A DNA stretch of 33,328 nt from the IMG/VR virus record IMGVR_UViG_3300030376_002050, positions 1 to 33,328 of that record; one strand, 5' to 3'. Source of the DNA: a virus (Duplodnaviria > Caudoviricetes). This document shows positions 1 to 15,500 of the stretch, piece after piece (position 1 is the stretch's first letter; each line of letters begins with the position of its first letter). The position numbers were made by a program, and so were the translations under genes. The notes under the pieces are model-generated. The model saw only the letters and a list, made by a program, of their open reading frames with translations, made no database searches and was not told the origin of the DNA.

Positions 1-2
1 GT

Positions 3-52
3 TCTCGGTATTAATTATCAAGCTTTAGCTTGATTAATAATTAATACCGAGA
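3..52. repeat. AT-rich long imperfect inverted repeat (21-bp stem, 4-nt bulge, TTTA loop)
   Basis: TCTCGGTATTAATTATCAAGC-TTTA-GCTTGATTAATAATTAATACCGAGA read directly. Confidence 0.9.
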
Positions 53-87
53 GGCAAAAACTGTCGGCTCGGTGAAGGGAGTTTGCG

Positions 88-447
88 ATGATTGTCGTAA
101 ATATGTCAGACCAAGAGGCGAAGGCTGTCCTCTCTCTTGGATCAAAGATCAGGAGGGCGCAAGGACTTCAAGAAGTCCATGTCTCTGCTGAAGATGCACC
201 GAAGGTTCGGGAGGCTTTGAAGAAACCACGCAAGAAAGAACGTACGGTTTCTAGGTCGGCTAAGAAGACGGCTAATGCTGTCCTGAATCGGAAGATTAAT
301 GCACAGAAAAGCCAAAGTACTTTGGCTTTGAGTAGGGGTGAGAAAGAGTCAGCGATTGAGCATTTGCAATCTGCTTTGGATCTTACACCTGAGAATTGGA
401 ATAGCGTGAGGGATTCTATTCAGCGTAGGCTAGTCAAATTGGCTTAG
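88..447 (+). CDS. hypothetical early protein, basic, 119 aa
   Basis: ORF with AAGGGAG upstream; no recognised domain. Confidence 0.7.
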   Translation: MIVVNMSDQEAKAVLSLGSKIRRAQGLQEVHVSAEDAPKVREALKKPRKKERTVSRSAKKTANAVLNRKINAQKSQSTLALSRGEKESAIEHLQSALDLTPENWNSVRDSIQRRLVKLA

Positions 448-453
448 TCTCTT

Positions 454-494
454 GGGAAATGTGCATGGTGATATTATCACTGTGTGCATTTCCC
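454..494 (+). promoter_or_regulatory. intergenic 19-bp hairpin with 4 G-U pairs
   Basis: GGGAAATGTGCATGGTGAT-ATT-ATCACTGTGTGCATTTCCC; all non-Watson-Crick positions are G-T on the + strand. Confidence 0.8.
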
Positions 495-519
495 TCAATC
501 AACCCCATAGGGAGGTACT

Positions 520-690
520 ATGGACTGTTTTGCTTTGGTATTTGAACACGACTGTGAGTGTGAGTGTCACAATGTCGGCTTTATTTCTTCACGGGAGACC
601 TGTTTTAGAGGGTGCGTGGAGTGTGATGAAGAGACGCTAACAGATGCGGATATACTCGGTGATCCTGTGAGGTATGTCTGGATCGATTAG
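520..690 (+). CDS. small Cys-rich acidic protein, 56 aa (absent from ORF track)
   Basis: GGGAGG at 510-515 and ATG at 520; MDCFALVFEHDCECECHNVGFISSRETCFRGCVECDEETLTDADILGDPVRYVWID; fills the gap between two hairpins. Confidence 0.75.
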   Translation: MDCFALVFEHDCECECHNVGFISSRETCFRGCVECDEETLTDADILGDPVRYVWID

Positions 691-699
691 TGCAAATCT

Positions 700-741
700 G
701 GTAGTTAGTGAACCCCTCATTTATGAGGGTTCACAACTACC
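700..741 (+). repeat. hairpin repeat copy 1; core GAACCCCTCATTTATGAGGGTTC at 710-732
   Basis: identical 23-nt core at 710, 1104 and 2819; outer arms GGTAGTTAGT/ACAACTACC. Confidence 0.95.
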
Positions 742-764
742 ACTAGAACCATTTGGGAGGTCAA

Positions 765-1088
765 ATGGCTGAGCAATACCAATATACATTTACCTATACG
801 TTGGCTTTGGTTGACGATGACGGTAACGATTATTCGTTTGAGGCCATGCAAGCATGGTTTACGATGGATCAAGCAGGTGGTCCTGTGTTCAGCATTACTG
901 CTGGGACTGGGACCGATACTGATACAGGTGAGACGGAGCCGATCATGATCGTGCAAGGGTTCACCAATGATATTGAGGCAACTAAGTACTACTGTGCTTA
1001 TGTGGCTCATACTATTAACCAGCGAGCGTTTGGTTGGTTCCAATCGCAGGCATCCTATGTGCCTGTGTCGGAGCTGGTCAAGGTTTAG
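765..1088 (+). CDS. hypothetical early protein, 107 aa
   Basis: GGGAGG at 755-760 supports ATG 765 rather than 753. Confidence 0.8.
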   Translation: MAEQYQYTFTYTLALVDDDGNDYSFEAMQAWFTMDQAGGPVFSITAGTGTDTDTGETEPIMIVQGFTNDIEATKYYCAYVAHTINQRAFGWFQSQASYVPVSELVKV

Positions 1089-1092
1089 CAAC

Positions 1093-1137
1093 TGGAGGGA
1101 GAAGAACCCCTCATTTATGAGGGTTCTTCTCTCTCCA
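1093..1137 (+). repeat. hairpin repeat copy 2; core at 1104-1126
   Basis: TGGAGGGAGAAGAACCCCTCATTTATGAGGGTTCTTCTCTCTCCA. Confidence 0.95.
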
Positions 1138-1161
1138 AAATCAAGTGATGGAGGTCACAAT

Positions 1162-1596
1162 ATGACATTTGAAAATATCAATCCGCTTACAGGTCGCCCA
1201 GAGAGTTGGGGTGGACGTGAAGCGCCTAGCACTGCATCTGTTTGGGATTTGCCAGATCATTATACGATTACGGACGATCCTGAGATGCGTAAGCTTTGGG
1301 CTAACTGGAAGAATCCAGCGATGTTTGAGCCTGAAAAGTACACGCTTGGTGAGCATGAGATTATTAGTGCTTTAGGTATGGACCCTAGACGTACCCTTGA
1401 TTATGAGGATGCGTTTCAAATGGGTACTCAAGCTGTGGGTATGTTGTTCGATCAGAATACAGGTGTGTGGACTGATCAGGATTACATGACTGATGATTGG
1501 GATTATTTGATTGATCCTGAGCATTTGGCTATACGTAGCACTGATTGTTACGAAGTAGATGCAGGCGATTACGTAGATGTAATTGTCCACGACTGA
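1162..1596 (+). CDS. hypothetical acidic early protein, 144 aa
   Basis: GGAGGTCA at 1150-1157 supports ATG 1162 (track start 967 is too long). Confidence 0.8.
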   Translation: MTFENINPLTGRPESWGGREAPSTASVWDLPDHYTITDDPEMRKLWANWKNPAMFEPEKYTLGEHEIISALGMDPRRTLDYEDAFQMGTQAVGMLFDQNTGVWTDQDYMTDDWDYLIDPEHLAIRSTDCYEVDAGDYVDVIVHD

Positions 1597-1607
1597 TTGG
1601 AGATCAG

Positions 1608-2144
1608 ATGAATATATATGATATTGCAGTGCTCGTATTGGCGAGCTGTTCCATGTTCCTGTATGTGGGGTGTATCTTGCATTACAGGGATTTAAAAAGT
1701 GCACAGGACATAGTGCGTGAGGTGGCTAGGGGTTTTAGTCCTGAAGCTGAGGCGCCATACCAGCAGGTCCGAGCGTTGGCTTTGTTCACGGCAGATGTTG
1801 CCAGTATTACTGACTATAGGGACAGGTTGGCTAGGACGTGTTACAGCGTGTTTCTAGAGTATGGTCCTGAAGCTGAGTTTCCACGTTATTTCGGTAGGCA
1901 ACTGATCAACGATTATGTGAGGCATTTATCGCTCAATAATCTACCAGTGCCACCGTATATGGTGAATCTTTCCAACATGGATGTTGGAGAGTTTGTAATG
2001 CAAGTCCTTAGAAGCGACCCCATCGTAAGAAGGATCTTAGATGCGTATGTTGCTGAAACTATTGACAGAATAAACGAATCCCCAGAGATAACAGAGTTCT
2101 TGACAAGCGAGGCACAGGTAATTGACCTGCACCCCGATTCGTAA
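1608..2144 (+). CDS. hypothetical protein with N-terminal transmembrane helix, 178 aa
   Basis: GGAG before ATG 1608; hydrophobic IAVLVLASCSMFLYVGCIL. Confidence 0.75.
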   Translation: MNIYDIAVLVLASCSMFLYVGCILHYRDLKSAQDIVREVARGFSPEAEAPYQQVRALALFTADVASITDYRDRLARTCYSVFLEYGPEAEFPRYFGRQLINDYVRHLSLNNLPVPPYMVNLSNMDVGEFVMQVLRSDPIVRRILDAYVAETIDRINESPEITEFLTSEAQVIDLHPDS

Positions 2145-2151
2145 AAGAAGA

Positions 2152-2172
2152 ACAATCTGAAATACAGATTGT
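2152..2172. promoter_or_regulatory. perfect 8-bp intergenic inverted repeat
   Basis: ACAATCTG-AAATA-CAGATTGT. Confidence 0.6.
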
Positions 2173-2203
2173 CAATTAATAATATATGCCATAGGAGGCA
2201 GAT

Positions 2204-2413
2204 ATGAGTAAGAAAGAAGCTAACAAGTTGCGATACCGCCAACTCAACGCCCAAATAGCTAACGCTACAAAAGCTAGCAAAAAGGGTGACAAGAAAGCGG
2301 TCAGTAAAGCGCTCAAAACAGCGTATAAGCTAGCTAGCAAACCAACTGTTTGGGAAACTGAGCAATTGCGTGTAAAAAAGAATGCCGTCACACACGGTGT
2401 AGACATAGCCTAA
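2204..2413 (+). CDS. small Lys-rich basic protein, 69 aa
   Basis: AGGAGG RBS; ORF. Confidence 0.75.
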   Translation: MSKKEANKLRYRQLNAQIANATKASKKGDKKAVSKALKTAYKLASKPTVWETEQLRVKKNAVTHGVDIA

Positions 2414-2416
2414 GGG

Positions 2417-2512
2417 GTATGTGTGGTAGGGCATGGCGACATGCCTTACTACAGGGTGCATGTGTATTCCCCCATGTGCATCCTGTAGTGGGAACTGCCC
2501 CACATTTCATAC
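2417..2512 (+). ncRNA. candidate multibranch structured RNA
   Basis: closing stem GTATG-TGTGG/CCACA-TTT-CATAC; GNRA-capped hairpin GGCATG-GCGA-CATGCC; 16-bp hairpin 2449-2488 with loop TATTCCCC. Confidence 0.55.
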
Positions 2513-2535
2513 AAGAGGTAAGTAAGGAGGCTTGG

Positions 2536-2805
2536 ATGAGCTATTACAAGAAAAACGAACAGGTAGACTCTCTGAGTTTAGAAGGAAAGCGATTCCCTTT
2601 AGAACAGGGGCGCTTGTTTAAAGTACGCAACCAAAGAGGCATATACAGAGTGCACCAAATATACGTCTGTAAAGACGACTCGGAGCTTGTAGAGATACAC
2701 GCTTGGTGGCGTGATAAAAAAATGTTCACAGGTGGTAAAGCGCATTGGCGTTTTGTCAAACCTGAAAACATTAAACACATCCTGAAGGATGTGGAAAGTA
2801 TTTAA
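2536..2805 (+). CDS. hypothetical protein, 89 aa
   Basis: AAGGAGG at 2524-2530 supports ATG 2536 (track start 2419 is too long). Confidence 0.8.
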   Translation: MSYYKKNEQVDSLSLEGKRFPLEQGRLFKVRNQRGIYRVHQIYVCKDDSELVEIHAWWRDKKMFTGGKAHWRFVKPENIKHILKDVESI

Positions 2806-2807
2806 AG

Positions 2808-2852
2808 TGGAGGGAGAAGAACCCCTCATTTATGAGGGTTCTTCTTCCTCCA
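2808..2852 (+). repeat. hairpin repeat copy 3; core at 2819-2841
   Basis: TGGAGGGAGAAGAACCCCTCATTTATGAGGGTTCTTCTTCCTCCA. Confidence 0.95.
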
Positions 2853-2882
2853 AAACCAAATTATTGAACTGGGAGGTTCACA

Positions 2883-3290
2883 ATGAGCAATGAAAAAATA
2901 GAAGTCAGGCTAGTTCTTGACGCTAACGAGTTACCAAGTCCTAATGTTGACGTTGATAGCATCGTGGAAGCGGTTGTAGAAAGCTATGACTTCGATAATG
3001 CTGTAGACAGACAAATCAACGACCGCATAGAGAGCTTAGAGTCAGATATACATACCCTTAAGGAGAACACTGAAGACTACGACTTTGACTTGATGGGAGA
3101 CGACCTTAGAAGGGACGAAGTAGCCATTGATGGTTTAAATAAGCGTGTAGATGAGCTTGAAACACTTATGCTACCTGAAGATTCAGGCGATAGGATGTCC
3201 ATGCTTATACTCAGAGTTGAGCGTTTAGAGAAGATCAATGAACGTTTGTTGCACGTTATTCACAACGTACAAGGAGTAGATCTTCCTTAA
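2883..3290 (+). CDS. acidic coiled-coil hypothetical protein
   Basis: GGGAGG RBS; heptad-like segments such as INDRIESLESDIHTLKE. Confidence 0.8.
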   Translation: MSNEKIEVRLVLDANELPSPNVDVDSIVEAVVESYDFDNAVDRQINDRIESLESDIHTLKENTEDYDFDLMGDDLRRDEVAIDGLNKRVDELETLMLPEDSGDRMSMLILRVERLEKINERLLHVIHNVQGVDLP

Positions 3291-3310
3291 ACGTACTTAG
3301 AACGCTGGGG

Positions 3311-3332
3311 TGTCACACCCCTCGTATAAAAT
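3311..3332 (+). promoter_or_regulatory. candidate promoter TGTCAC-N10-TAAAAT
   Basis: same box and spacing recur at 6324-6345. Confidence 0.4.
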
Positions 3333-3364
3333 ATACACAACAATGACCAAAGGAGGTCACTATT

Positions 3365-4369
3365 ATGACATGGGGCAGAGATCACATGTTTGCTGGAGGT
3401 GACGACTCTACGCCAGTAGCGTCTGTTCACTTCAAAGCAGAACAAGTAGGTGCGGATTTTAGCGTATCCTATTTACCAGCAGGTTTCCTGAAACAAGCTG
3501 TAGCGTGGCAAGAACCAGAATTTACGGTTCCTGTTTACGAATCAGGCGAGTATGAAGGGCAACCTAAACAAATGTACCTCGTTCGTGATGACACGAATGA
3601 AGTAGTCGGGCAACATTCATCCAAATACCCAAGACGTGAGGCATATAGCCACAACTTTGAGGTGTTGGAAAATGCGTTTCCAAACTCTTGTGAAAGCGTC
3701 CAAACGTGGGAGAACGGCGGTCTTTGCCTAGTTACCCAACGTATAGGAGAAGAAGTAGAGTTGCCTATGGGCGATGAGCTAGTCCAATATGTTTACAGCA
3801 CGATGTCCTTGAACGGCACAAAACGTACTGCAACCATACCTAAGGCACAGCGAGTTTCTTGCACAAATGCTTTGGGCATTACCTTAGCGATCATATCGTC
3901 AAAGGCTACACGTAACCATGACACTAGGATTTCTTTCCAAGCTGAAGTGTTTGAAAAGTCAGAGATTCAACTAGATGCACTTGTCCGTATGGCAAGGACA
4001 TTTACTGACCAGAACTTCACAGATGAAGAGTTCAAACGCATGGTTCATGCAATAGTCCCAGACCTTGAAAAAGACCCAAGCACCAGAGCGCTTAATAAAC
4101 ACAACAGCACACTTGGTAGCATGTTTGGGGCATGGAAGAAAGAGTCTGACGAATACGGCGACAAAAACATGTGGGTTGCTTACAACGCCATCCAAGGCGC
4201 TGAGCAACACCGCATTAACACCAATTTCAAATGGGAAGACGACAAGGGCTATGACGCTGGACAGAAGAAGTCCATCTTCTCCGCTCTTGAGGGAGTCACG
4301 CCATTTGCTGATGCTTGTGAACAATATCTCAAAGACGAGCTTAATCGTCCTGAGAGTTTGCTAGTATAA
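3365..4369 (+). CDS. DUF932-family (phage/plasmid) protein
   Basis: family-like motifs YLVRDDTNEVVG, S-x-NG, RVSCTNAL, WVAYNAI; about 330 aa. Confidence 0.75.
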   Translation: MTWGRDHMFAGGDDSTPVASVHFKAEQVGADFSVSYLPAGFLKQAVAWQEPEFTVPVYESGEYEGQPKQMYLVRDDTNEVVGQHSSKYPRREAYSHNFEVLENAFPNSCESVQTWENGGLCLVTQRIGEEVELPMGDELVQYVYSTMSLNGTKRTATIPKAQRVSCTNALGITLAIISSKATRNHDTRISFQAEVFEKSEIQLDALVRMARTFTDQNFTDEEFKRMVHAIVPDLEKDPSTRALNKHNSTLGSMFGAWKKESDEYGDKNMWVAYNAIQGAEQHRINTNFKWEDDKGYDAGQKKSIFSALEGVTPFADACEQYLKDELNRPESLLV

Positions 4370-4379
4370 ATACAGGTTT

Positions 4380-4446
4380 GGTGGGGCTGTCGCCTAATTT
4401 CTTTGGAACAGAGTTTGACCTCCCTCTCTGAGGCGATGGTCCCACC
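4380..4446 (+). ncRNA. candidate structured RNA with anti-SD loop TTTGACCTCCCT
   Basis: 16-bp outer stem 4380-4395/4431-4446 (3 G-U); inner stem CAGAG/CTCTG; loop 4414-4425. Confidence 0.6.
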
Positions 4447-4463
4447 TCCATTAGGAGGATCTT

Positions 4464-4841
4464 ATGATACTTATTAACCAAGATGGTGCGTACTTAATCA
4501 TGCCTTGGAAGGGCGGATATTTAATACGTGCTAAACACACAGAAGACATACGCAAAATGATGACTCGTTTACATGGGAAACGTTGGTGTATAGGGAATCT
4601 GGCAGAAAAAATTATTGCAACCCCAAAGTCCTTGTGGAAATACAGGGTGGTTTTAAGGGCTGGCGAATGGAGCACGTATCTAACCAAAGTTTCTAAAGCT
4701 ATTGATTATACGGATTTGTTTGAAGAGTTGCGCCAACAGGAGGGCATGACAGAAGACAAGCTCAAGGGGCTTATGGGAGTGCAAATGCACATAGATAAAG
4801 GCTGGACTTATAAGGGGTTAGAAAATGCCGAATCTTTATGA
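4464..4841 (+). CDS. hypothetical phage protein, 125 aa
   Basis: AGGAGG RBS; ORF. Confidence 0.75.
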   Translation: MILINQDGAYLIMPWKGGYLIRAKHTEDIRKMMTRLHGKRWCIGNLAEKIIATPKSLWKYRVVLRAGEWSTYLTKVSKAIDYTDLFEELRQQEGMTEDKLKGLMGVQMHIDKGWTYKGLENAESL

Positions 4842-5043
4842 AGTAGTACATGTATACATATACGAAGACAGTGAACACACACAAGTGGTTGCTGAAAGTG
4901 AACAAGAAGCAATGGCAGTAGCAGAACAGGAACGTGAAGGTCCAGATTCTGCTTGGAACCATGCTCCGCTGTCACAGGATTATGTATATGAAGTGAATGT
5001 TGTGGAAGAAGACGTTAACGAAGAAGACTATGACTATGAGTAA
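4825..5043 (+). CDS. small acidic protein (possibly DpnD/PcfM-like)
   Basis: VVAESEQEAMAVA motif; overlaps neighbours. Confidence 0.6.
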   Translation: MPNLYEVVHVYIYEDSEHTQVVAESEQEAMAVAEQEREGPDSAWNHAPLSQDYVYEVNVVEEDVNEEDYDYE

Positions 5044-5638
5044 TTATAAACGCAAAGCTAAATACGGAGAACGTAAAACTAAAAACATAACAGGGGCTGG
5101 CACTGAATGTGAAGTTTCGGGTTGTGAAAGAGAAGTTCGTGCTCGTGGTATATGTGCAAAGCATTATCAATCATGGAGTAAATACGGTTACCCTTTTCCA
5201 TCGTCATACCTTCCGCAAGCAGAAAGCCTTGAAGAATTTTTGGATATGCGCCACACCAAAACAGATAACTGTTGGACATGGACAGGTTCAATAGATATAT
5301 ACGATGGGTATGGTAAATGTCATATTAGAGGATGGGGGGACAGGCTGGAAAAGCTAGGGGTTGGTGGTCGCAAACCTAAACCCAAAAGACCTAGCCATCA
5401 TGTTCGTGCTCATCGGCTGGCTTATGCTGTTTGGGTAAAGCCAATTCCCAAAGGATCGGTAATCCATCACATTTGCAACAATCGTTCATGTGTAAATCCA
5501 GATCATTTACAGGCAATTAGCCCTAAAGAGAACACGGCTGAAATGGTCGAACGTAAAACCTATCTAAGGGAAATACGTGAATTAAAGAAACGCATAAAAG
5601 AGCTAGAGAAAGGACACAAAACATGCTGTACAACTTAG
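5036..5638 (+). CDS. HNH endonuclease with N-terminal Cys/His zinc motif
   Basis: CEVSGC...CAKHY; CWTWTG...GYG; RAHRLAY...IHHICNNRSCVNPDHL...EN; start may be 5030. Confidence 0.9.
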   Translation: MSNYKRKAKYGERKTKNITGAGTECEVSGCEREVRARGICAKHYQSWSKYGYPFPSSYLPQAESLEEFLDMRHTKTDNCWTWTGSIDIYDGYGKCHIRGWGDRLEKLGVGGRKPKPKRPSHHVRAHRLAYAVWVKPIPKGSVIHHICNNRSCVNPDHLQAISPKENTAEMVERKTYLREIRELKKRIKELEKGHKTCCTT

Positions 5639-5829
5639 TAAGTTGCCCTTTATGCAGGAAAAAATTCCCTGATGAGCTACATGCTTTAAGCAGGGTAGAC
5701 AACAAAACACACATTTGCTCTGACTGTGGCACATGGGAAGCTATGGCTCCCATGCGCAATACTTGGGGCTTAATGGCTATGGCTGACTTAATGGCTAAAG
5801 TACTTAAGGAGATACAAAATGGCAATTAA
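5623..5829 (+). CDS. small zinc-ribbon protein
   Basis: CPLC...ALSRVDNKTHICSDCG. Confidence 0.7.
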   Translation: MLYNLVSCPLCRKKFPDELHALSRVDNKTHICSDCGTWEAMAPMRNTWGLMAMADLMAKVLKEIQNGN

Positions 5830-6028
5830 ATTTGATGCAGAAATAACCTTAGATGACGACTATCTAGAACATACGTATGCTGACTGGGATGAAGGCAGTT
5901 TCAGCGTAGAAATGGTTATTCGTGATGCTATTAGCGATATATGGGAGTCACATAGGTTTGGAATTAGCTTAACGGCTAAGAATGTAAGCTTAGATTCACT
6001 AGAAATAGGAGGTAGGGAAGATGGCTGA
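5819..6028 (+). CDS. small acidic hypothetical protein
   Basis: AAGGAG RBS; overlaps neighbours. Confidence 0.7.
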   Translation: MAIKFDAEITLDDDYLEHTYADWDEGSFSVEMVIRDAISDIWESHRFGISLTAKNVSLDSLEIGGREDG

Positions 6029-6308
6029 AGTATTAGATAAATTCCCAAAGAACGAAGGCAAAGGACGTTTTTTCAGAGGTGACCCAGAGTGGCTGGATGG
6101 GCGTGTTTGGAAGTTGCATCCAGACAGAGATCTCTACATGTATAAGAGCATTAAGTCTGCCCGAACTAGCCTTAGATATATGTCTATACAGCGAGGTTGG
6201 AGTGGCTTTCGTACAAAGATTAGCGCAGACGATTGCTTGATCATACAATGCTACGAACTCACAGGAGAGTGGGACAAAAGCTTTGATTCTGATTATTTAG
6301 AGGAATGA
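6021..6308 (+). CDS. hypothetical protein, 95 aa
   Basis: AGGAGG RBS; ORF. Confidence 0.7.
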   Translation: MAEVLDKFPKNEGKGRFFRGDPEWLDGRVWKLHPDRDLYMYKSIKSARTSLRYMSIQRGWSGFRTKISADDCLIIQCYELTGEWDKSFDSDYLEE

Positions 6309-6323
6309 GGTTGGAAAAGAAAA

Positions 6324-6345
6324 TGTCACACTCTATATTTATACT
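6324..6345 (+). promoter_or_regulatory. candidate promoter TGTCAC-N10-TATACT
   Basis: matches 3311-3332; precedes the replication module. Confidence 0.4.
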
Positions 6346-6347
6346 AG

Positions 6348-6393
6348 TACTTAGTACACGATTTCCTGTTAAGGGAAATCGTGGTACTAAGTA
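6348..6393. repeat. long imperfect inverted repeat (about 20-bp stem, GTTA loop)
   Basis: TACTTAGTACACGATTTCCT-GTTA-AGGGAAATCGTGGTACTAAGTA. Confidence 0.9.
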
Positions 6394-6410
6394 TCACTTA
6401 GGAGGTCTTC

Positions 6411-7223
6411 GTGATTAAATACCCAATTCATAAAGATGAACAAGGACGTTGGGTTCACACTTGGGTAAGGCAGTCATCTATAAAAACTGCAGATATGTGC
6501 ATGGAAAGATTTAAGCACTCTATCTTTGGAACTGTTAGCGAACCAAACAATGATGGCGCTGATCTAGGAACAGCTTGCCATTCAGTAGCTGAAGACGCAA
6601 TAAATCACATGCGTCAAGGTTTTGATATGAGTTTAAATGACTGCTACGAAGCGTTAGATTACTACTGGGAAATACTCGCAGAGAACGTAGACAACTGGTA
6701 TTCATACGGTGATGCGCTCAAAGCCCAAATGATGGGTCGCCAGAAGATAAAAAGCTGGTACGAAAATGTTCTACCAATGATCACAGACCCAATAGGGGTT
6801 GAAGTAGATTTCAACAAGGTCTTGATAGAGGACGACAAGCGTGTCGTATATCTCAGAGGCACTGTAGATTTAGTAGAACCGCACATGCTGTGGGATTGGA
6901 AGTTCCCTAAGGCTGACTATACGAGAGATCGTTGGCAGTACGATAGGTGGGATGTCCAGTCAATTGCCTACACATGGGCGTTAGGCATTCCCAACTTTAG
7001 GTTTGGCGTAATGCACAATAAAGGTTGGGGAACAATGGAATTTACACGTAGCGAATCAGATTATGATTGGCTACGCAACAAAGTCGCTAGCATCTGCGAA
7101 TACGTTGAAAACGCCACATCAGGAGCTTGGCTCTTGGGCGACAACGGTTGGTGGTGTAGTGAAAAATGGTGTCCAGCTTGGACACAGTGTAAGGGTAAGA
7201 AAAACCCAGAAAGCGAGGAATAA
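6411..7223 (+). CDS. Cas4/RecB-like PD-(D/E)XK exonuclease with probable Fe-S cysteines
   Basis: N-terminal Cys (DMC), GTACH, E...RGTVDLV...WDWK, Q-x-x-x-Y, C-terminal C-x4-C-x5-C. Confidence 0.85.
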   Translation: MIKYPIHKDEQGRWVHTWVRQSSIKTADMCMERFKHSIFGTVSEPNNDGADLGTACHSVAEDAINHMRQGFDMSLNDCYEALDYYWEILAENVDNWYSYGDALKAQMMGRQKIKSWYENVLPMITDPIGVEVDFNKVLIEDDKRVVYLRGTVDLVEPHMLWDWKFPKADYTRDRWQYDRWDVQSIAYTWALGIPNFRFGVMHNKGWGTMEFTRSESDYDWLRNKVASICEYVENATSGAWLLGDNGWWCSEKWCPAWTQCKGKKNPESEE

Positions 7224-7224
7224 C

Positions 7225-7926
7225 GTGGGATACTCCATGACTCCTTATGAGAGGGCTTCAATAGAAGCCCAAGTCTGCATAAAAGCAGGCGTAGAAATGG
7301 CTGTTGCTGAAATCAGCAACGGTGGTACAGGTGGTGTGTCACTTGCTTTGGCAAATGCACTAGCACTTGCCGAATCACTGACAGACTTGAAAGACGTCAT
7401 AGTCGGTGATAATGCAACTGCACCCAGCTCTGTACCGATGGCTACAGAAGCAGATATTAAAAATGCGTTTCCCAGTGCGGTAGCGCAGACAACTCCTTCT
7501 GGACAGACATCACAATACATAGCCGATGAGGATTACTCAGCGGTACACAAACTATTCATGCACGAACAAGCTAACGGAATCACTTATGGTTCCCAAGAGT
7601 CTGCGTTTATGGATAATCAAGCTGTCAGGAAGCTCTATGCAAATGGCGCACGTCAGTTCCCACCAGATTACTGGGCAGAAGTGATGCGTGGCAAAGAGAT
7701 CCCTGTCACAAAGAAAGGCAAATGTGCCCTTGGAGATTTTAAAATCAAAAAGGGTGTCAGTGTTAGCGCCGAAGGCACTCCCAGTTTGGGGACTGGAGAG
7801 GGCAACCACCCACTAGCCAATAAATCAGGCTACTTTGGTGGATTGGTGAACAACACACCTTTCAATTGGTCAGACCGTCCTGCACCTATCGACCCACAGG
7901 GTTGGCTAGCAGGCATAAGTGGCTAA
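7225..7926 (+). CDS. hypothetical protein in replication module (position suggests an SSB or recombination partner)
   Basis: GAGGA then GTG 7225; lies between exonuclease and helicase; no recognised motif. Confidence 0.65.
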   Translation: MGYSMTPYERASIEAQVCIKAGVEMAVAEISNGGTGGVSLALANALALAESLTDLKDVIVGDNATAPSSVPMATEADIKNAFPSAVAQTTPSGQTSQYIADEDYSAVHKLFMHEQANGITYGSQESAFMDNQAVRKLYANGARQFPPDYWAEVMRGKEIPVTKKGKCALGDFKIKKGVSVSAEGTPSLGTGEGNHPLANKSGYFGGLVNNTPFNWSDRPAPIDPQGWLAGISG

Positions 7927-8908
7927 TAAGCGTCTCACTATGACAGACGCAATGGACTTGTTGGGGCAGCAGGCAACTGTTGCCCCAACAGTCGTTCCAA
8001 AGGCAAATGGTGTCACAGACATAGACCTAAAGCGATTATTTACACCTAAGACAGAGCAGATGAAACGTATGCGCTCTGATCTTCGTGCAGGCGGAGAGTG
8101 GCGCTTTGGTATTGATGCTTTTGACACCGCAACTTTGGGAGGCGCAAGAGCAGGCCAGCTAGTAACGCTGATCGGCAAAACGCATACAGGTAAGACTATG
8201 GTGGCCATGAATATGGTCGCCAAGAACAGGAACCACAGGACTCTTTGGGTAAGCCCAGATGAGACTGAGACAATGTTCTGGGGTCGCTACTCAGCTATGA
8301 AATTACAAGTCAGCCAATCTGACTGGCTTGGTAGGCTGATGCGTCAAGATGAGCAAGCTTGGGAGCGTACTTCGCAAATAGTGCAAGACGAAAAGAACCT
8401 ACACTTTGAGTCTACAGGAATGTCTGTAGATGATTTAGATAAAGCGCTGAGGATAGCGTCAACAGAACTATGGGACGGTGAACGTCCACATGTTCTGGTA
8501 TATGACTATCTAGAGTTAATCAGGGGAGGCACTGGCGATGCACAAAGCGTGCAAGCCAAGATTGAATCCTTTAAACAACTCGTAAGCGACTGGCGGATAA
8601 TAGGAGTTATGCTTCATCAGTCAGGTAGAGGTTCTGGTACTCGTGGAACTGCTGGAGGCATAGACTCAGGTCGTTACGGCTCAACGTCAGAAAGCCACTT
8701 CGTGATTGAAACATGGCGTAGGTGGGATGACACAAGCTTAGACGAAGAGACTCGCTCTTGGTACCAAAACGAAATAAGCGTAGGCTTATGGAAAAACAAA
8801 GCTGGCGAAGGCACAAAAGCCGAAGCCAACCTGACAATAGACCCAAGTGGACGATTGCTTGAGGCAGGTGTTACTTGGGAGCAAAGGGAGTTGGAAATAG
8901 ATGTCTGA
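7919..8908 (+). CDS. DnaB-like / RecA-fold replicative helicase
   Basis: Walker A GKTHTGKT, Walker B VLVYDYLELI, LHQ motif, C-terminal KNK. Confidence 0.85.
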   Translation: MANKRLTMTDAMDLLGQQATVAPTVVPKANGVTDIDLKRLFTPKTEQMKRMRSDLRAGGEWRFGIDAFDTATLGGARAGQLVTLIGKTHTGKTMVAMNMVAKNRNHRTLWVSPDETETMFWGRYSAMKLQVSQSDWLGRLMRQDEQAWERTSQIVQDEKNLHFESTGMSVDDLDKALRIASTELWDGERPHVLVYDYLELIRGGTGDAQSVQAKIESFKQLVSDWRIIGVMLHQSGRGSGTRGTAGGIDSGRYGSTSESHFVIETWRRWDDTSLDEETRSWYQNEISVGLWKNKAGEGTKAEANLTIDPSGRLLEAGVTWEQRELEIDV

Positions 8909-9920
8909 CATTACACAAGACTTCATAAATCTATTTAAAGGCTTCCCTAACGCTTTCGGCACTAACGAAGGCGGATGTAAATGGGAAAAACCAAACTGGG
9001 AAGAGCACCTATTCGGGACTCGTGAAGATGAGATGATAGGTATTTACCCAATGGTTTACGATCCACACTGCAAACTAGACATGCAAGGTCCAGAGGCTTA
9101 CGACTCTGAACGCAAATACACAGAGATGCAACCAGATATGTGGCATTGCATTTGGGGTGCTATAGACATAGACGAAGGCGACGACTCACTAGACTACGCT
9201 TTTAATGCCCAGACAATACTCAGAGCATTAGACATACCTAGTTGGGTTGAGCTTTCACGTTCCAAAGGATGCCATGTGTGGGTATTTTGCGAGGAATGGG
9301 TTACTGCCAAATTAATACGTAAAGTATTAAAAGGTGTAATGCAACTAGGCGACATACCTTATGACGCCGTGTATCCAAAGCAAGATTCACTTGACGGACC
9401 AGTAGGTAACTACATGAGATTGCCCTACGGTTGTTTGCGACCTGAAGGTAGACAGATGATGATTAATCACACAGGGGAAGCCTACGATATTAACTCATTT
9501 GTCTTTACGGCAACTGACCGTAAAGCAAGCAAGGTAGCGTTAGAAGCAGGTTCACACCTATATAAAGAACCCAAAGCTGATCTACCCCCACCACGTGAAT
9601 ACTCCAAAGAGCCATTAATGACAATGGACGGATCTAAATTGCGTGGAGCAGCCCGAAAAATGTATGATGACGGACCAGTTGAATACTTCCTCACAGGACA
9701 AGGCGCAGGTCGTGGACGGCATGGCTTCTTGCATAGATTTGCAAGGGCCATGTGGGAGTCAAATTACGCTATTTCTGATATAGTTTCATGGACCGCAGAC
9801 CTAGACTCTCGTCTTGGACTATGGTATCCAGAAGGACCAAAATTTTCAGGGAGGCGTGATGGGCAAAAGCAAATCCAAAGAATCGTTGAAGACGCAAAAA
9901 GCAGAGCAACGATCCGTTGA
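8901..9920 (+). CDS. archaeo-eukaryotic primase (AEP) superfamily primase/primpol
   Basis: motif I WGAIDID, motif II SRSKGCHVWVF, YPKQ...GNYMRLPY; follows helicase. Confidence 0.85.
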   Translation: MSDITQDFINLFKGFPNAFGTNEGGCKWEKPNWEEHLFGTREDEMIGIYPMVYDPHCKLDMQGPEAYDSERKYTEMQPDMWHCIWGAIDIDEGDDSLDYAFNAQTILRALDIPSWVELSRSKGCHVWVFCEEWVTAKLIRKVLKGVMQLGDIPYDAVYPKQDSLDGPVGNYMRLPYGCLRPEGRQMMINHTGEAYDINSFVFTATDRKASKVALEAGSHLYKEPKADLPPPREYSKEPLMTMDGSKLRGAARKMYDDGPVEYFLTGQGAGRGRHGFLHRFARAMWESNYAISDIVSWTADLDSRLGLWYPEGPKFSGRRDGQKQIQRIVEDAKSRATIR

Positions 9921-10251
9921 GTTCACTGTAGAGGGACGACCCAGACCAAAGGGTCGCCCTCGCATGACTCGGCGAGGTAAAGTATATACACCAATAGAGA
10001 CTATTAAAGCTGAAGAACTATACGAAGACGCAGTTGACAAAAGATGGAAATCTTTTGAAGGTCCAGTAAGCGTGACAATTACTTTTTCTAATGAAAGTAC
10101 ATACGTAAAGATTACAGAAGAAGAGGGTTGGACTTCTCCTTTGCGTGGCGATTTAGACAATTACATCAAGCTTGCACTTGATGGAATCCAACGATCAGGT
10201 TTAATCGCTAACGATAGGCAAGTGGTAAAAATAGACGCAATAAAGGTATAA
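9859..10251 (+). CDS. rusA: RusA-family Holliday junction resolvase
   Basis: GRPRPKGRPR, DLDNYIKLALDGI, NDRQV; GGGAGG at 9849-9854. Confidence 0.9.
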   Translation: MGKSKSKESLKTQKAEQRSVEFTVEGRPRPKGRPRMTRRGKVYTPIETIKAEELYEDAVDKRWKSFEGPVSVTITFSNESTYVKITEEEGWTSPLRGDLDNYIKLALDGIQRSGLIANDRQVVKIDAIKV

Positions 10252-10252
10252 C

Positions 10253-10693
10253 ATGGAACAATTCAAAGACAGAGCTTTTGAACACAGATTTAAACTAATG
10301 GGTGATTTAGCTGAACAAGCTTTTGAAACTTCTTGGAAAAAGGGGTTCGTTAGATATGGGTTAAACCGTCCGCCATTAAAAATGTCGTCTTTACCTTTAG
10401 AGATAAGGCACACACCAGATTATTTAACTTCCTCGCATTTAGTGGAAGTTCAAGGTATAGGCAAAGATCAGAAACTCAAGTTAAAACTTGATAAATGGAA
10501 AGCTTTAGATTGGTGGAACATGGTTCACCCCCTGCTCTTCTTTATCTACGACTCTTTTAACGACAGGGTAACAATGCTTGAATGGGAAACATTAACGAAT
10601 TTATGCAAAGATGCAGAAATAGAGACATTTAAAGAGGGAAAAAAGTACTATGCGGTCCCTGCTACCCTAATATGGGTAAATGGGGAAACGTGA
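10253..10693 (+). CDS. putative PD-(D/E)XK-fold nuclease
   Basis: GDLAE...TPDY...LVEVQG pattern. Confidence 0.5.
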   Translation: MEQFKDRAFEHRFKLMGDLAEQAFETSWKKGFVRYGLNRPPLKMSSLPLEIRHTPDYLTSSHLVEVQGIGKDQKLKLKLDKWKALDWWNMVHPLLFFIYDSFNDRVTMLEWETLTNLCKDAEIETFKEGKKYYAVPATLIWVNGET

Positions 10694-11054
10694 CTTCATA
10701 CTTGATCCAATAGAAGCATCTTGGATATTTGATAAAGCATACAGCAAACAAAGGCACAAAATAGCAACAGCTATGGAAGCGCTAATGTTAGCGGAACCTT
10801 ATAGAGAACCAGACATATCTTTAGAGGAACAACACGAATTGCGAGAAGTGCTTGTGGGTGCGCTAGATGTTTTGGAACCCATAGAACTATGGATTATTAA
10901 CGCTTTGCTTTTTGAAAAGCTGAGCTTAAGAGAGGTCCAACACATACTTGGAATTCCCAAAACAACTTTGGCACGCAAAAGAGATAAGATTTTTGCAAAA
11001 CTCAAAGAAGAACTTAAAAACAACACAAAAATACAGGAGTATTTAAATGGATAA
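10680..11054 (+). CDS. sigma-70 region-4-like HTH protein
   Basis: ALDVLEP...LSLREVQHILGIPKTTLARKRDKIFAKLK. Confidence 0.75.
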   Translation: MGKRDFILDPIEASWIFDKAYSKQRHKIATAMEALMLAEPYREPDISLEEQHELREVLVGALDVLEPIELWIINALLFEKLSLREVQHILGIPKTTLARKRDKIFAKLKEELKNNTKIQEYLNG

Positions 11055-11607
11055 CCCCCCAAACATAACGCCTACCTACTGGGAAGACTCAGCGGATTTG
11101 ATGGCATTCAGAATAGATGACGCCAGAGATAGAGGTTTAGAACATCCAGATATTAAAGACGGATTTTTTGGATTGTTAAAAGCAATCCGAGAAGAATTTG
11201 ACATGTTCTGCATGAAAGTCTGGGGCGTCCCCGAAGATGACCTAGACGGAACAGTAATAGCCAATTGGTTCACAGCGTTTGCAACACTAGTTTTAGATGC
11301 AGGAGATCAGAACGAAGAGATTGATATACCCAACGCAGCAGCTTTGCTACCGTTATTAATTGCCAAACAACATGATTACGGACACATGAACATTCAACGT
11401 TTCGGAGTTGAGGGTATCCTCGTAAGGATGCACGACAAAATAGCACGCTTAGAAAATCTAAGCATGCGTTCTTATGACATGGAAGATGGCGCATTGTGCG
11501 AAGCAACCGAAGACACAATAGCTGATCTAGTAGGTTACTGTGTAATTGCGTCCATGTATTCCTTCGGAATATGGATGCTACCTATGCAATTAGATGATTT
11601 AGATTAA
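11047..11607 (+). CDS. nucleotide-modification-associated domain 1 (Nmad1/DUF1599-like) protein
   Basis: KQHDYG-x2-NI-x2-FG-x2-GILVRMHDKIARLENL...EDTIADLVGY. Confidence 0.75.
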   Translation: MDNPPNITPTYWEDSADLMAFRIDDARDRGLEHPDIKDGFFGLLKAIREEFDMFCMKVWGVPEDDLDGTVIANWFTAFATLVLDAGDQNEEIDIPNAAALLPLLIAKQHDYGHMNIQRFGVEGILVRMHDKIARLENLSMRSYDMEDGALCEATEDTIADLVGYCVIASMYSFGIWMLPMQLDDLD

Positions 11608-11771
11608 AAATCTTTAGTTAAAGCTTTAGCTACAGGATTCTTAAAAAGGCAACCACCGATAAATGCAATAGCAGCGTCTCCACCGATTGTTCCCACTGAT
11701 GCAAGAACAACAACGGCAATAACGCCAACTATTGTAAGTAATTCACCTTTTAATTCTTTTACACTGTCCAC
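11604..11771 (-). CDS. putative holin, 55 aa (absent from ORF track)
   Basis: GGAG then GTG 11771 (alternative ATG 11783); MDSVKELKGELLTIVGVIAVVVLASVGTIGGDAAIAFIGGCLFKNPVAKALTKDF; hydrophobic; directly after endolysin. Confidence 0.7.
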   Translation of the reverse strand: MDSVKELKGELLTIVGVIAVVVLASVGTIGGDAAIAFIGGCLFKNPVAKALTKDF

Positions 11772-12502
11772 AAATATCTCCATGTCACTGGTCCTATTAC
11801 CCCATCATTGTAGATAGGGTGTTGTTTCTGAAAGCGTAGCACAGCTTTACGTGTGTTCCTACCAAAAACTCCATCTACAACAAGTTTCACTGGCAAACGC
11901 ACATTAAGTTGCTGTTGCGCCATTTGCACGTATTTGCCCTTAGAGCCACGCTTTAAAGGTTTACGTTGCAACTCAACACCAATATCCAACAAATAACGGC
12001 GTATCCCACTAAAATCAATAGTCGTAGGATTAGTTACAACATCAGGCATTCCTGCCTTAACCCACTCAGCTAATTTGTCAGCAGGACAATATGTAGCTGC
12101 ATAATCACGATGACATTTTATCCAAATTTGTTCCCCATACTTTTCACGCACGCCTTCAACAGCCTTAATAAAACCGTCCTTAGCTTCATCAGTTATTTCA
12201 TCCCCAGAGCCAATGTAAGCGATAGAAATGCTTCTCCAATTCCATCCCCTAGTAGCTGCACCTTGGTGCCAGCCACGACCTTCAAAGATCTCCCCATTCT
12301 CTCCGACTAAAAAATTGTACCCAATTGATCTCCACCCTAAGGTTTTAGTGTGGTATCTATCGTGATTCTTTATGCGCTCGGAAGGCATCGTTGAAGCACC
12401 AGTAGTGTGGTGCACAATAACGCCGACAGGTGGCACACGAAACGGATAAAGTCGCTTCCCTGAATCAATCGCTCCCCATTCTTTACGAGTCGTATACTTC
12501 AT
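11759..12502 (-). CDS. endolysin: Amidase_2/PGRP-like amidase plus C-terminal peptidoglycan-binding domain
   Basis: IVHHT, SIGYNFLV...EGRGW, HRD-x3-T-x-CP; LKRGSKG...VDGVFGRNT...FQ...DGVIGPVTW. Confidence 0.92.
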   Translation of the reverse strand: MKYTTRKEWGAIDSGKRLYPFRVPPVGVIVHHTTGASTMPSERIKNHDRYHTKTLGWRSIGYNFLVGENGEIFEGRGWHQGAATRGWNWRSISIAYIGSGDEITDEAKDGFIKAVEGVREKYGEQIWIKCHRDYAATYCPADKLAEWVKAGMPDVVTNPTTIDFSGIRRYLLDIGVELQRKPLKRGSKGKYVQMAQQQLNVRLPVKLVVDGVFGRNTRKAVLRFQKQHPIYNDGVIGPVTWRYLWTV

Positions 12503-12505
12503 ACC

Positions 12506-12523
12506 TAATGTCCTTTTCGTCCC
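12506..12523 (-). promoter_or_regulatory. candidate late promoter GGGAC-N7-ACATTA
   Basis: identical motif and spacing at 25435-25452. Confidence 0.4.
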
Positions 12524-15500
12524 TACTCGTTTAATGACCTAATCGCCTCATCTATTCTAGACTGAGTGTTAAGGTCATATTTCTCTTGCCTATCATCATA
12601 GTACTCAGATGTGATTTCTTGTTGGACCTCGTATTTTGTAAGAACCCTTGTACCTATTCCAGCAAAGTAACTCATAATATTAGAGAAATGCCTCTCTGAG
12701 TATTTCTCCTCAGTTGGAGCTACTCTCCTGAGGTCATTAATTAATGGAAACATCTGTGTAATTCCATGCAACCAATTACTTCTAGCAACCAAATTCCCAT
12801 CAGGGGTTTTTTGTACCGAATCAGTCATGCCTGAAGTATGGATAATTTCAAAAAGGGGCTTCGCCCAAAATGGAACTTCTTCCCATTTGTTCTGGAAACT
12901 ATAGCCTTTCCAAATGTTCCTATTAAGCCAAATCTCTGCTGGTCCCTTGACCAAAGGAGTGACCATTCCACCCATCCCAGAAAACGCAGATTCAAATCCG
13001 CCTACAACATCTCCTTTTGTTGCTTTACCTAAAGGCTCACCCAACAAATCAAAAACAGATCTCATGGGCAAATCAGGAATAAAGTAAACAGGTCTGTCGT
13101 TGTAGTTCATTCCTTTGGGTAGTCTTATTCCGCCTTGGCGAACCATCCAATCAGGCACAGGACCGTACTCAGGTTGCTCTTTGTCATGCAAAGCTTGCAT
13201 GACTTGAGAATACCTGTGGAACTTTTGAGGTTGTTTAAAGTATTGACCTATCTGCAGGGGAACATTGTGCCTTGTAAATGTGTAGAAAGGAATTACCCTT
13301 TTAACGTTTCTTTCTGCTGGACTCAAATCAGAATAATCAAAATGATATTTTGTTATCTGATCCCAAGCATCGCCCAAAGTTCCACCCTTATTAATAGTGT
13401 CGTACCCTAAAGCGCCCCTTACATAATCCTCAACCCTTGAGTTAACTCTCCTAAAACCTTTCAAAGGAGCGAATTGCGAACTTATAGGAATTAAAGACCT
13501 AACATCTATGTCATGTTTTCCGACACGCACGCTAGTTCTAAATTTCTTTTTACCTATTTTAATAGTTCGTTTTTCAGAAGGAATAAATTCTTGTGCGTAA
13601 AAACCGCTACCTTCTTTCCCAATAACTCCTGTGTCGTACATTTGTTTAACAATGTTGATGTCTTTAGCGCTTGTAGCTTTACGAGCTTCAGCTACAGCTT
13701 TTTCAGCTTTTCTTAATTTCTTTGTATTGGTTGGATCAAACATGATTAAATCTGCATGTTGTTCAGACAACCGTAAATACTTGTACGCTGTAGAAAACGA
13801 CTTGTACGCACTTGGCGAAACGTTAGCCAAGTAGTTCATCCACACAGCGCCATAAAAGTTTCTAGCCAAAAACCCAGATTTCAAAATCATGTAACCTTTA
13901 GTGATGTTATGAACGTTGTCGTAATACTTCCCAAAAGCGCCGCTAGGCTTGCCCTGCTCCAACCCCATCTTTGTGTTGCCCATCATGGTTGTACGCAAAG
14001 ACTCAGAAGATTGAGCATTTAAGCCAATAGGTCTCCTAGATGCGTTGTTTTGATAACGCAAAGTTTCTTCAAGTCGCAATTTGGTTTTGTTGCCCATTTG
14101 ATCAGGTGCAGGAACCTCTATTTCATCAACCAAATACTTGACGTTGTTCAAGTCGCCTAAAAGTTCGTCAGCTTGTTCCATGTCTGCAATTCCTATTTGC
14201 TTTAAAGAACTAGCCAAGTCAATAATAGCATCGTAACTTTCTAAAGTTTGAGCTTGATCAGGGTCAAGGCCATTGATCAAAGCTTGAAGATTGTTACGAG
14301 CATCTTCGTATTGTAAAAGCCTAGACTGAATGTTTTCCATTATCTGGTGTTCAGCCAAAATTTGCTTTTCAACATCCCCAAGCTGTTTTATGATTCCGCT
14401 TTCTTCCAATTGATCATCAGGTAGCCATTGACGCAACTTGCGCAAATCATCAGATATCTCCGCTTTGTCTAAACTCAAATAGCCTATTCGGTGCTTTTCG
14501 CTTAGCGTCTTTAGTCTGTCTAAATAAGCTGCCTTTAAGTTGTTGTGATTGTATTTCAATTGACGCACTTCATTTTTGCGTTGGATTAAATCACGTAACA
14601 AAGTATCAAAGTTTTTGTAACCTAAAGCTTTTGCTTTAAAGTTCCTTAAGGCAACGTCTTCCCCATTTGTGAAAGGATCAGCCCAAGCAGTACGCACTTG
14701 CTCTTCGTAACGGCGAATCAAAGCTTCCCTGTTTGGGGCAACTTCAAGTATCGCATCATCAATCATTTTCTCCCTAGAAGGAAGTTTTTCAGGTTCAGCC
14801 TTTAGCGCATTTGCACGTATCCGTTGATCAACAGTTCGCTCAATAAGCTCCCTGTCAATCGTTACTGCTGCATCGTCAACAACATTAACATCCATAACAA
14901 ACGGCATCTTTATAGACATTTCGTCATGGTTGCCTGCTTGTCTCCCTTGGATGATTTGTTCTCTCGTCAAGTTACGAGAAGCAACTTCTGTCATTTCGCC
15001 ATCAGCAACTTCAGACAAATCTATCAATCCCATTTGAGCTTGTTTACTGTAAGCCCTGCGACCACCTGCAATTGTACGAGGTTGAGAGGTAGCTATATAG
15101 CCATCGCTAACAAGAGAGTTCTTATATTGCTTGACAACAAGGTCAAGCAATTCTTTATTCTTTCCAGTCTTATTAATACTTTGAGACAAATAACTAAACA
15201 ACCTGTTAGCGTAAACATAAGATTGCATTTTCGCCTTTAGGACTTCTTGCCTGTAAGAAGGGTTACTTGGATCTGTGACACGAATGTATTCTGCCAAGTC
15301 ATCCATAAACAATCGCAATCCTTGCGATTCTGTCAAACCATCCATAGCCATGTCTATTTGCCTGTACTTGTTATCCCTCCAAGAAACAAACTCAAACACC
15401 TCTTGAAAGGTTCCGCCTTCAGGCATCAAAGGAAGAATGTTGTTCCCAACAGGGGAACCAATAATTGCCTGTGTCTTAGCCACTGCACTAATAGCTTTAA

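Follow-up and report, generated by a model that had tools for sequence, protein, structure and literature searches.

We have identified a structured RNA element in an uncultured marine phage family, placed directly behind a gene of the DUF932 family, whose open loop carries an anti-Shine-Dalgarno (anti-SD) core. Comparison across relatives indicates that the element is selected to complement the phage's own early ribosome-binding sites (RBSs). It probably functions as a small RNA that pairs with the RBSs of the DUF932 gene and of other early genes and blocks their translation. Early phage gene shut-off is usually credited to proteins or nucleases. If our reading is true, an RNA that recognizes an early-gene set through the SD sequence plus a private flank would constitute a general, protein-free switch, and it would explain why early phage RBSs are often conserved beyond 16S pairing.

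The window, meaning the whole stretch of 33,328 nucleotides analysed here, is a 33-kb virus record that is 83% complete. Its plus strand carries small unknown genes and the DUF932 gene, followed by a replication module. The features around the element are:

3365..4369, plus strand: DUF932 gene (Pfam PF06067, E 5.8e-9), the constant upstream neighbour of the element
4362..4367, plus strand: candidate -10 hexamer overlapping the last DUF932 codons, with a predicted start near 4374
4380..4446, plus strand: structured RNA element of about 67 bases, intergenic, behind the DUF932 gene
4380-4395/4431-4446, plus strand: outer stem of 16 bp with three G-U pairs, closing a junction
4409-4413/4426-4430, plus strand: inner, loop-bearing stem, beside a weak side hairpin within the junction
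4414..4425, plus strand: open loop of 12 nt, with the anti-SD core and a lineage-specific 5' flank
4445..4466, plus strand: RBS and start of gene 4464, directly 3' of the element and without covariation
plus strand: replication module with exonuclease, helicase, primase, RusA and a sigma-like factor
minus strand: lysis and virion genes

Relatives were drawn from IMG/VR and from metagenome contigs, among them a Tara contig that encodes a protein identical to the DUF932 protein of the window. Searches of prokaryote genomes returned no relatives, and searches of named phages returned none save one weak helicase match. The host may be an actinobacterium; WhiB was found in 0 of 18 records, and an Atlas search with the endolysin led to mixed taxa. 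The structure model of the DUF932 protein (pLDDT 77) had a best fold match of Z 7.4 that was uninformative on function, and an Atlas search with the gene 765 product revealed none. Inside the virion module, the minus strand carries an open reading frame of 3508 codons at 12523-23049.

The preliminary description, made from the sequence alone, had claimed an outer stem of 16 bp with three G-U pairs and an inner stem, holding up a loop that exactly complements the RBS of gene 765. Refolding gave that structure at -33.5 kcal/mol (z -4.98), and none of 200 shuffles folded equally well; the wider segment 4370-4460 had a z of -2.69 and the minus strand one of -1.51. A paired loop had been named as grounds for abandoning the idea; the best fold leaves the loop open, and opening 4414-4424 costs 0.39 kcal/mol. 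Positions 4414-4424 are the exact reverse complement of 755-765, which reaches the A of the ATG at 765, and this is the sole 11-nt match to the loop region on both strands of the window. The shorter matches claimed were likewise present, at 8 nt (1150 and 3352) and at 7 nt (6401, 510 and 2871). Among 27 CCTCC sites, with the backs of RBSs excluded, the loop ranked first in complementarity to 35 start regions. Two other sites of the 27 attain 10 nt, so the 11-nt match by itself is weak evidence. The element is the only one of 39 CCTCC sites in the window that is exposed in a long stable stem. The argument for it is carried by the relatives.

The predicted target RBSs are the following, most of them with the SD sequence in a small hairpin of its own:

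749..768, plus strand: gene 765 RBS hairpin, SD in a 6-nt loop and start codon in the 3' arm; 11-nt complement
3344..3359, plus strand: DUF932 RBS hairpin; 8-nt complement to the loop and the most consistent partner across clades
1145..1158, plus strand: gene 1162 RBS hairpin; 8-nt complement
505..523, plus strand: gene 520 RBS hairpin; 7-nt complement
2865..2880, plus strand: gene 2883 RBS hairpin; 7-nt complement plus one G-U pair
6401..6407, plus strand: RBS of the exonuclease gene 6411; 7-nt complement, without a stable hairpin of its own

After opening costs, gene 765 scored -13.0 kcal/mol and ranked first of the 35 starts in the window, with gene 6411 second, which makes the exonuclease gene a possible downstream target. 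All ten best-scoring starts belong to genes read rightward, and four of these (6411, 9859, 8901 and 6021) lie in the replication module; the best late gene reached -7.1 kcal/mol. In 10 genomes annotated with a crude gene caller, the share of RBS calls with GGAGGT was 52 of 91 for early genes, 17 of 62 for middle genes and 6 of 85 for late ones; the loop would thus discriminate by stage. Of 268 early RBSs, 228 can form a stem of at least 5 bp around GGA, where shuffled flanks would yield 62%; for downstream RBSs the corresponding values are 75 of 106 and 64%. Such hairpins fit an initiation by loop-loop pairing. The preliminary description had also pointed to a recurring C beside these SD sequences as something that ribosome pairing could not explain. 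The C does recur, but at 756, 1150 and 3352 it pairs inside the RBS's own hairpin, a nearer explanation that calls for no RNA partner.

Other inverted repeats accompany these genes. Three long hairpins lie between early genes of the window (710-732, 1093-1137 and 2808-2852; z about -5), share an identical 23-nt top and stand each just 5' of an RBS hairpin. The 23-nt motif was found in 14 of 124 loci, in some directly 3' of the element, and these hairpins are possibly RNase III-type processing sites or protein-binding sites. At the left end of the early region, further long inverted repeats occupy 3-52 and 454-494.

In order to assess conservation, loci were picked by protein similarity, independently of the RNA. 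Of 120 distinct sequences, 73 had CCTCC within 100 nt 3' of the DUF932 stop, among them 72 of the 78 with at least 34.5% protein identity, which bears out the expectation that the loop is kept in relatives. By identity class, the proportions were 9/9 (at least 65%), 1/4 (44-65%), 46/46 (37-44%), 16/19 (34.5-37%) and 1/42 (below 34.5%). Control genes carried CCTCC 3' of their stops in 1 of 104 (exonuclease), 1 of 104 (helicase) and 6 of 89 (primase) cases. Between clades, the stems and side hairpins are wholly different, with the core kept. Nine close relatives keep every one of the first 10 outer pairs canonical, although six columns vary, three of them on both sides, and the 10-nt loop core is invariant in all nine aligned sequences. 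A filter for CCTCC exposed in a long stem was passed in 7 of 10 whole genomes and failed in G004, G010 and G011; for L112/L338 and their clade, the best fold has the loop base-paired.

Two further searches yielded candidates that were set aside. CCTCC also follows homologs of gene 7246 (36/76), and in the 13 cases inspected this apparent second element was the coding start of the helicase gene. An exact 16-mer scan of viral contigs gave 10 matches, of which three were known relatives; the remaining seven matched the window in no protein, lacked a comparable fold and were put down to chance. Directly 3' of the element, 24 of 68 element loci (e.g. L112, L113, L276 and L316) have a second small conserved hairpin that is absent from the window.

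In the relatives, the loop and the early RBSs change together. The 5' flank of the loop reads TCA in the clade of the window, TTGCA in that of L338, TTTCA in that of L113 and TACA in those of L054/L200/L138, and the early RBSs often track the flank of their own clade. Covariation was tested by permuting loops among groups defined by DUF932 identity; the groups are not fully independent. With a broad set of 35 loci, the early RBSs gave p < 1e-4 (17 groups) and p = 0.006 (6 groups), compared with 0.08 and 0.03 for downstream genes, and the 5' side of the SD gave no signal. A strict test counted only bases beyond GGAGGT and used 36 of the 69 CCTCC-bearing sequences, namely those with ACCTCC and at least three early GGAGGT sites; the 33 left out had no A before the core or fewer than three such sites. 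For 18, 12 and 8 groups, the early RBSs gave p <= 1e-4, 1e-4 and 0.001, and the downstream genes 0.055, 0.18 and 0.28. Duplex energies agreed, with p = 0.0004/0.004/0.001 for early RBSs and no significance downstream. The covariation persisted on leaving out any one group (p <= 0.0007); on dropping the three best groups, it fell to p = 0.011 with Watson-Crick pairs and 0.13 with G-U pairs. Relatives thus display the covariation that the preliminary description had called for (12 groups, p = 1e-4), unevenly between clades: the own loop beat decoy sites of the same genome in 7 of 11 groups, it ranked by energy 11th or 12th of 12 in two groups, and in the L036 group there is no contiguous extension between the loop and the early RBSs.

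The strongest covarying target is the RBS of the DUF932 gene, at p = 1e-4 in base extension with or without G-U pairs (mean extension 3.25 versus 1.76 with G-U) and p = 0.0008 in duplex energy (-16.3 versus -14.4 kcal/mol). The DUF932 gene is a likely target of the element. The proposal that the loop pairs with early RBSs is partly supported by these comparisons, but the place of chief partner given to gene 765 is not, the adjacent DUF932 RBS being the most constant. In sum, of the first reading, an open, conserved and covarying loop stood, and the primacy of gene 765 and the unexplained C did not.

That same result favours an alternative in which the element belongs to the DUF932 3' UTR and pairs in cis with the RBS of its own mRNA, the other matches being by-products of shared RBS hairpins. 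The element is always directly behind the DUF932 gene, and there is a precedent in icaR of Staphylococcus aureus, for which the available text of PMC3868564 describes a C-rich motif behind the gene that complements its own SD, in cis on one mRNA. Complementarity of this type between motif and adjacent SD was found in most groups, not in L112, L034 and L113. Tight linkage alone would, however, favour covariation of the adjacent RBS. Moreover, in the L112/L116, L034/L037 and L113 clades the loop finds no extension at the DUF932 RBS and does find it at far-upstream RBSs; in the L338 and L113 clades, RBSs 3-6 kb upstream match the loop and the DUF932 RBS does not, so that action at a distance is needed. 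Early RBSs other than that of DUF932 still covary (p = 0.0015 with Watson-Crick pairs and 0.20 with G-U in 12 groups; p = 0.013 in a separate test).

A separate transcript is further suggested by the -10-like hexamer at the DUF932 stop, which is invariant in nine of nine close relatives. The pattern TANNNT, which we take to be that of a -10 element, is loose; counted without the stop codon's own TA, it was seen close to the DUF932 stop in 44 of 63 loci with the element, versus 8 of 55 DUF932 loci without it, and close to 60 of 313 other stops. By groups, the proportions are 21/29 with and 3/17 without the element; in the L142 group, the match falls inside the stem. No -35 consensus was evident on reading the sequences upstream of the element. 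The preliminary description supposed an RNA made later than the early genes; on that point, the hexamer suggests a host-polymerase promoter at the border of the early and replication regions. Repression by a separate RNA is in our judgment likelier than cis control of DUF932 alone, to which we assign a low though appreciable probability.

The single metatranscriptome (X1) contained only contigs of a relative that is 90-95% alike, and these cover little of the window. The end of one contig falls at 4424, the edge of the loop; it was rejected as evidence because contigs show no strand or RNA end. Another skips 5038-5683, so the HNH endonuclease gene at 5036-5638 of the window looks like a mobile insertion.

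It is improbable, and somewhat more so than cis control, that a protein (CsrA/RsmA-like or a phage repressor) reads the early RBS hairpins, the element being a terminator, a processing hairpin or a minus-strand decoy and its loop an inverted RBS copy. The excess of early RBS stems over shuffled flanks speaks for such a reader, as do RBS hairpin loops resembling the CsrA site, in the form that we presume for its motif. The sister clade L180/L107/L108/L178/L109 also has early RBS hairpins of a uniform type, and in its sequences, which are fragments, no anti-SD loop was found exposed; the RBS hairpins may be older than the RNA, with the RNA adapting to them. CsrA family matches, though, numbered 0 in 19 virus records. 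Nor does the element resemble an intrinsic terminator: no U-run follows 4446, and one follows the element in only 8 of 68 loci, so that a short GC stem and then a U-run were not found, a pattern that U-less terminators would escape. Terminators of that kind are known for high-GC Gram-positive hosts. A terminator also needs no fixed CCUCC loop with a flank that tracks RBSs across clades at 35-45% protein identity. The minus strand folds too, with z < -2 in 28 of 67 elements versus 45 of 67 for the plus strand; median z is -1.82 versus -2.36, and in 40 of 67 elements the better fold is that of the plus strand. G-U pairs are also commoner on the plus strand, with 216 of 1529 pairs versus 67 of 1411, to which plus-strand G skew contributes. 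Fold and G-U pairs together carry the signature expected of an element acting as a plus-strand RNA.

We consider it a little less probable again that the loop mimics the 16S rRNA 3' end, silencing host mRNAs with strong SDs or decoying a protein or nuclease that reads the anti-SD. The loop core is the anti-SD core itself, the available part of PMC6486639 reports C-rich loops that bind many targets in Actinobacteria, and further RNAs linked to translation, short tmRNA-like elements, occur in these early regions. Against this, the loop flanks vary by clade, following the phage's own RBSs, and of 12 groups, the own loop outscored a 16S-type extension in 7, tied with it in 1 and fell short of it in 4. 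Host silencing may be a side effect of the loop. Very unlikely, finally, is a 5' leader controlling gene 4464 in cis via a pseudoknot with its RBS, since, even though the element abuts that RBS and in L002/L003 the RBS shows 8 nt of complementarity to the 3' part of the loop, the first gene 3' of the element shows no covariation with the loop (p = 0.70) and many clades have another hairpin in between (one motif shared by 24/68).

The repression by a separate RNA that we favour would proceed as follows. A host-polymerase promoter overlapping the DUF932 stop would make the RNA, which would accumulate as infection proceeds. Its CCUCC core would seed on the looped GGAG of an RBS hairpin, and the flank would then invade the 3' arm of that hairpin toward the start codon. 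DUF932 and a lineage-specific subset of the other early genes would be damped, and late genes, mostly without a full GGAGGU, would escape. An RNA chaperone would not be required, as reported for the mycobacterial 6C RNA.

The element is probably of the C-rich-loop antisense kind, outside any described family. Rfam 15 covariance models, those of c4, 6C, RsaE, RNAIII and ar14/cuckoo included, gave only matches below the gathering score, to unrelated families, in 1-12500 and 4340-4480 of the window, and no match at the element in 11 related loci. A literature search at the level of titles, exclusive of subscription papers, found no report of a phage anti-SD RNA directed against early genes. The conserved unpaired C-rich motif of C-rich-loop small RNAs is present, open in most clades and paired in some, and covariation places its SD complementarity beyond chance, unevenly between clades. 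RNAIII of S. aureus is a C-rich-loop small RNA that binds SD regions. In the available text on RsaE and its kin in S. aureus (PMC2790875) and on 6C RNA of Mycobacterium tuberculosis (PMC6486639), an unpaired C-rich motif binds the SDs of several mRNAs without Hfq, and the element is predicted to do likewise. RsaE, 6C and RNAIII, however, are chromosomal and act on host genes, whereas the element is viral, has its targets in its own genome, with RBS flanks that change with the loop, and shows no sequence family match to them.

The c4 antisense RNA of P1/P7 is the nearest phage counterpart among the systems compared: in the portion of PMC12197685 available, it is a structured RNA whose loops pair around an RBS on an mRNA of the same phage and prevent its translation, as is predicted for the element. 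It differs in having one target operon, a role in temperate-phage immunity and private complementary sequences, whereas the seed of the element is the universal SD and its putative targets are several early genes. Cuckoo RNAs of Alphaproteobacteria, as far as the accessible text of PMC4615179 goes, share a fixed anti-SD loop motif on highly variable stems but comprise 2-4 adjacent hairpins, each with CCUCCUCCC. The element has a single loop with a variable flank and lacks the cuckoo motif, so it falls outside their definition. Unlike icaR, it has a candidate promoter of its own, and in several clades it matches distant genes and not its neighbour.

A possible parallel exists in Cluster K mycobacteriophages, where start-associated sequences (SAS) are over-conserved RBS motifs at non-structural genes (PMC3203893, PMC11373665, PMC12699233); in the parts of these papers available, their function is stated as open in 2011, 2024 and 2025. 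Pope et al. 2011 do not decide between an RNA and a protein as the binding partner of SAS, and they mention a single inverted copy in four K1 phages (PMC3203893). In the right 36 kb of Anaya, we counted 16 forward SAS matches and one inverted, the latter forming the 10-nt loop at the tip of a long hairpin that separates genes 96 and 97 (L269:34874). Adephagia likewise has its inverted SAS as an open hairpin loop (unpaired probability 0.90; L273:437) in the interval between genes 92 and 93, where late transcription starts according to the available part of PMC11373665. Hammy carries an altered anti-SD loop at the corresponding place (L270:468), and no inverted-SAS loop was found in the examined parts of Shandong1, Hurricane, Omnicron and TM4, so the tally is two exact and one partial among seven. 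The inverted SAS of K1 phages sits in a long structured leader behind a promoter-like sequence that is conserved in five of five aligned phages.

Cluster K phages and their sequences are unrelated to those of the window, and the motif of the window is less uniform than SAS; we regard the K1 parallel as a lead and not as a rule. It nevertheless allows a wider proposal, which we offer tentatively and hold to be rather less than evenly probable: lytic phages would time their development by a self-made anti-Shine-Dalgarno RNA, one loop reading the lineage-specific tag of the early genes' RBS hairpins by loop-loop pairing and shutting the early regulon, and the same design would explain the K1 SAS, whose complement is shown in the late-transcript leader. 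The K1 anti-SAS hairpin makes the idea directly testable in cultured phage with published RNA-seq.

Relatives of the window contain further structured RNAs. Short tmRNA-like elements of about 80-105 nt, with tRNA-like ends and without an mRNA-like domain, pass the Rfam tmRNA cut-off, and a pattern search finds nine distinct ones in 12 of 124 loci:

L030:4514-4619, tmRNA-like element
L033:4138-4220, tmRNA-like element
L113:4445-4526, tmRNA-like element
L045:2714-2808, tmRNA-like element
L123, tmRNA-like element just behind the structured RNA element

ARAGORN returned no tRNA or tmRNA on 23 loci and misses these elements, and a search of literature titles found none on short phage tmRNA-like RNAs. 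They are possibly SmpB decoys. Early regions of two of these loci also carry a pistol ribozyme (L033:3873-3934) and a type II hammerhead (L030:1342-1418), both above their Rfam gathering scores.
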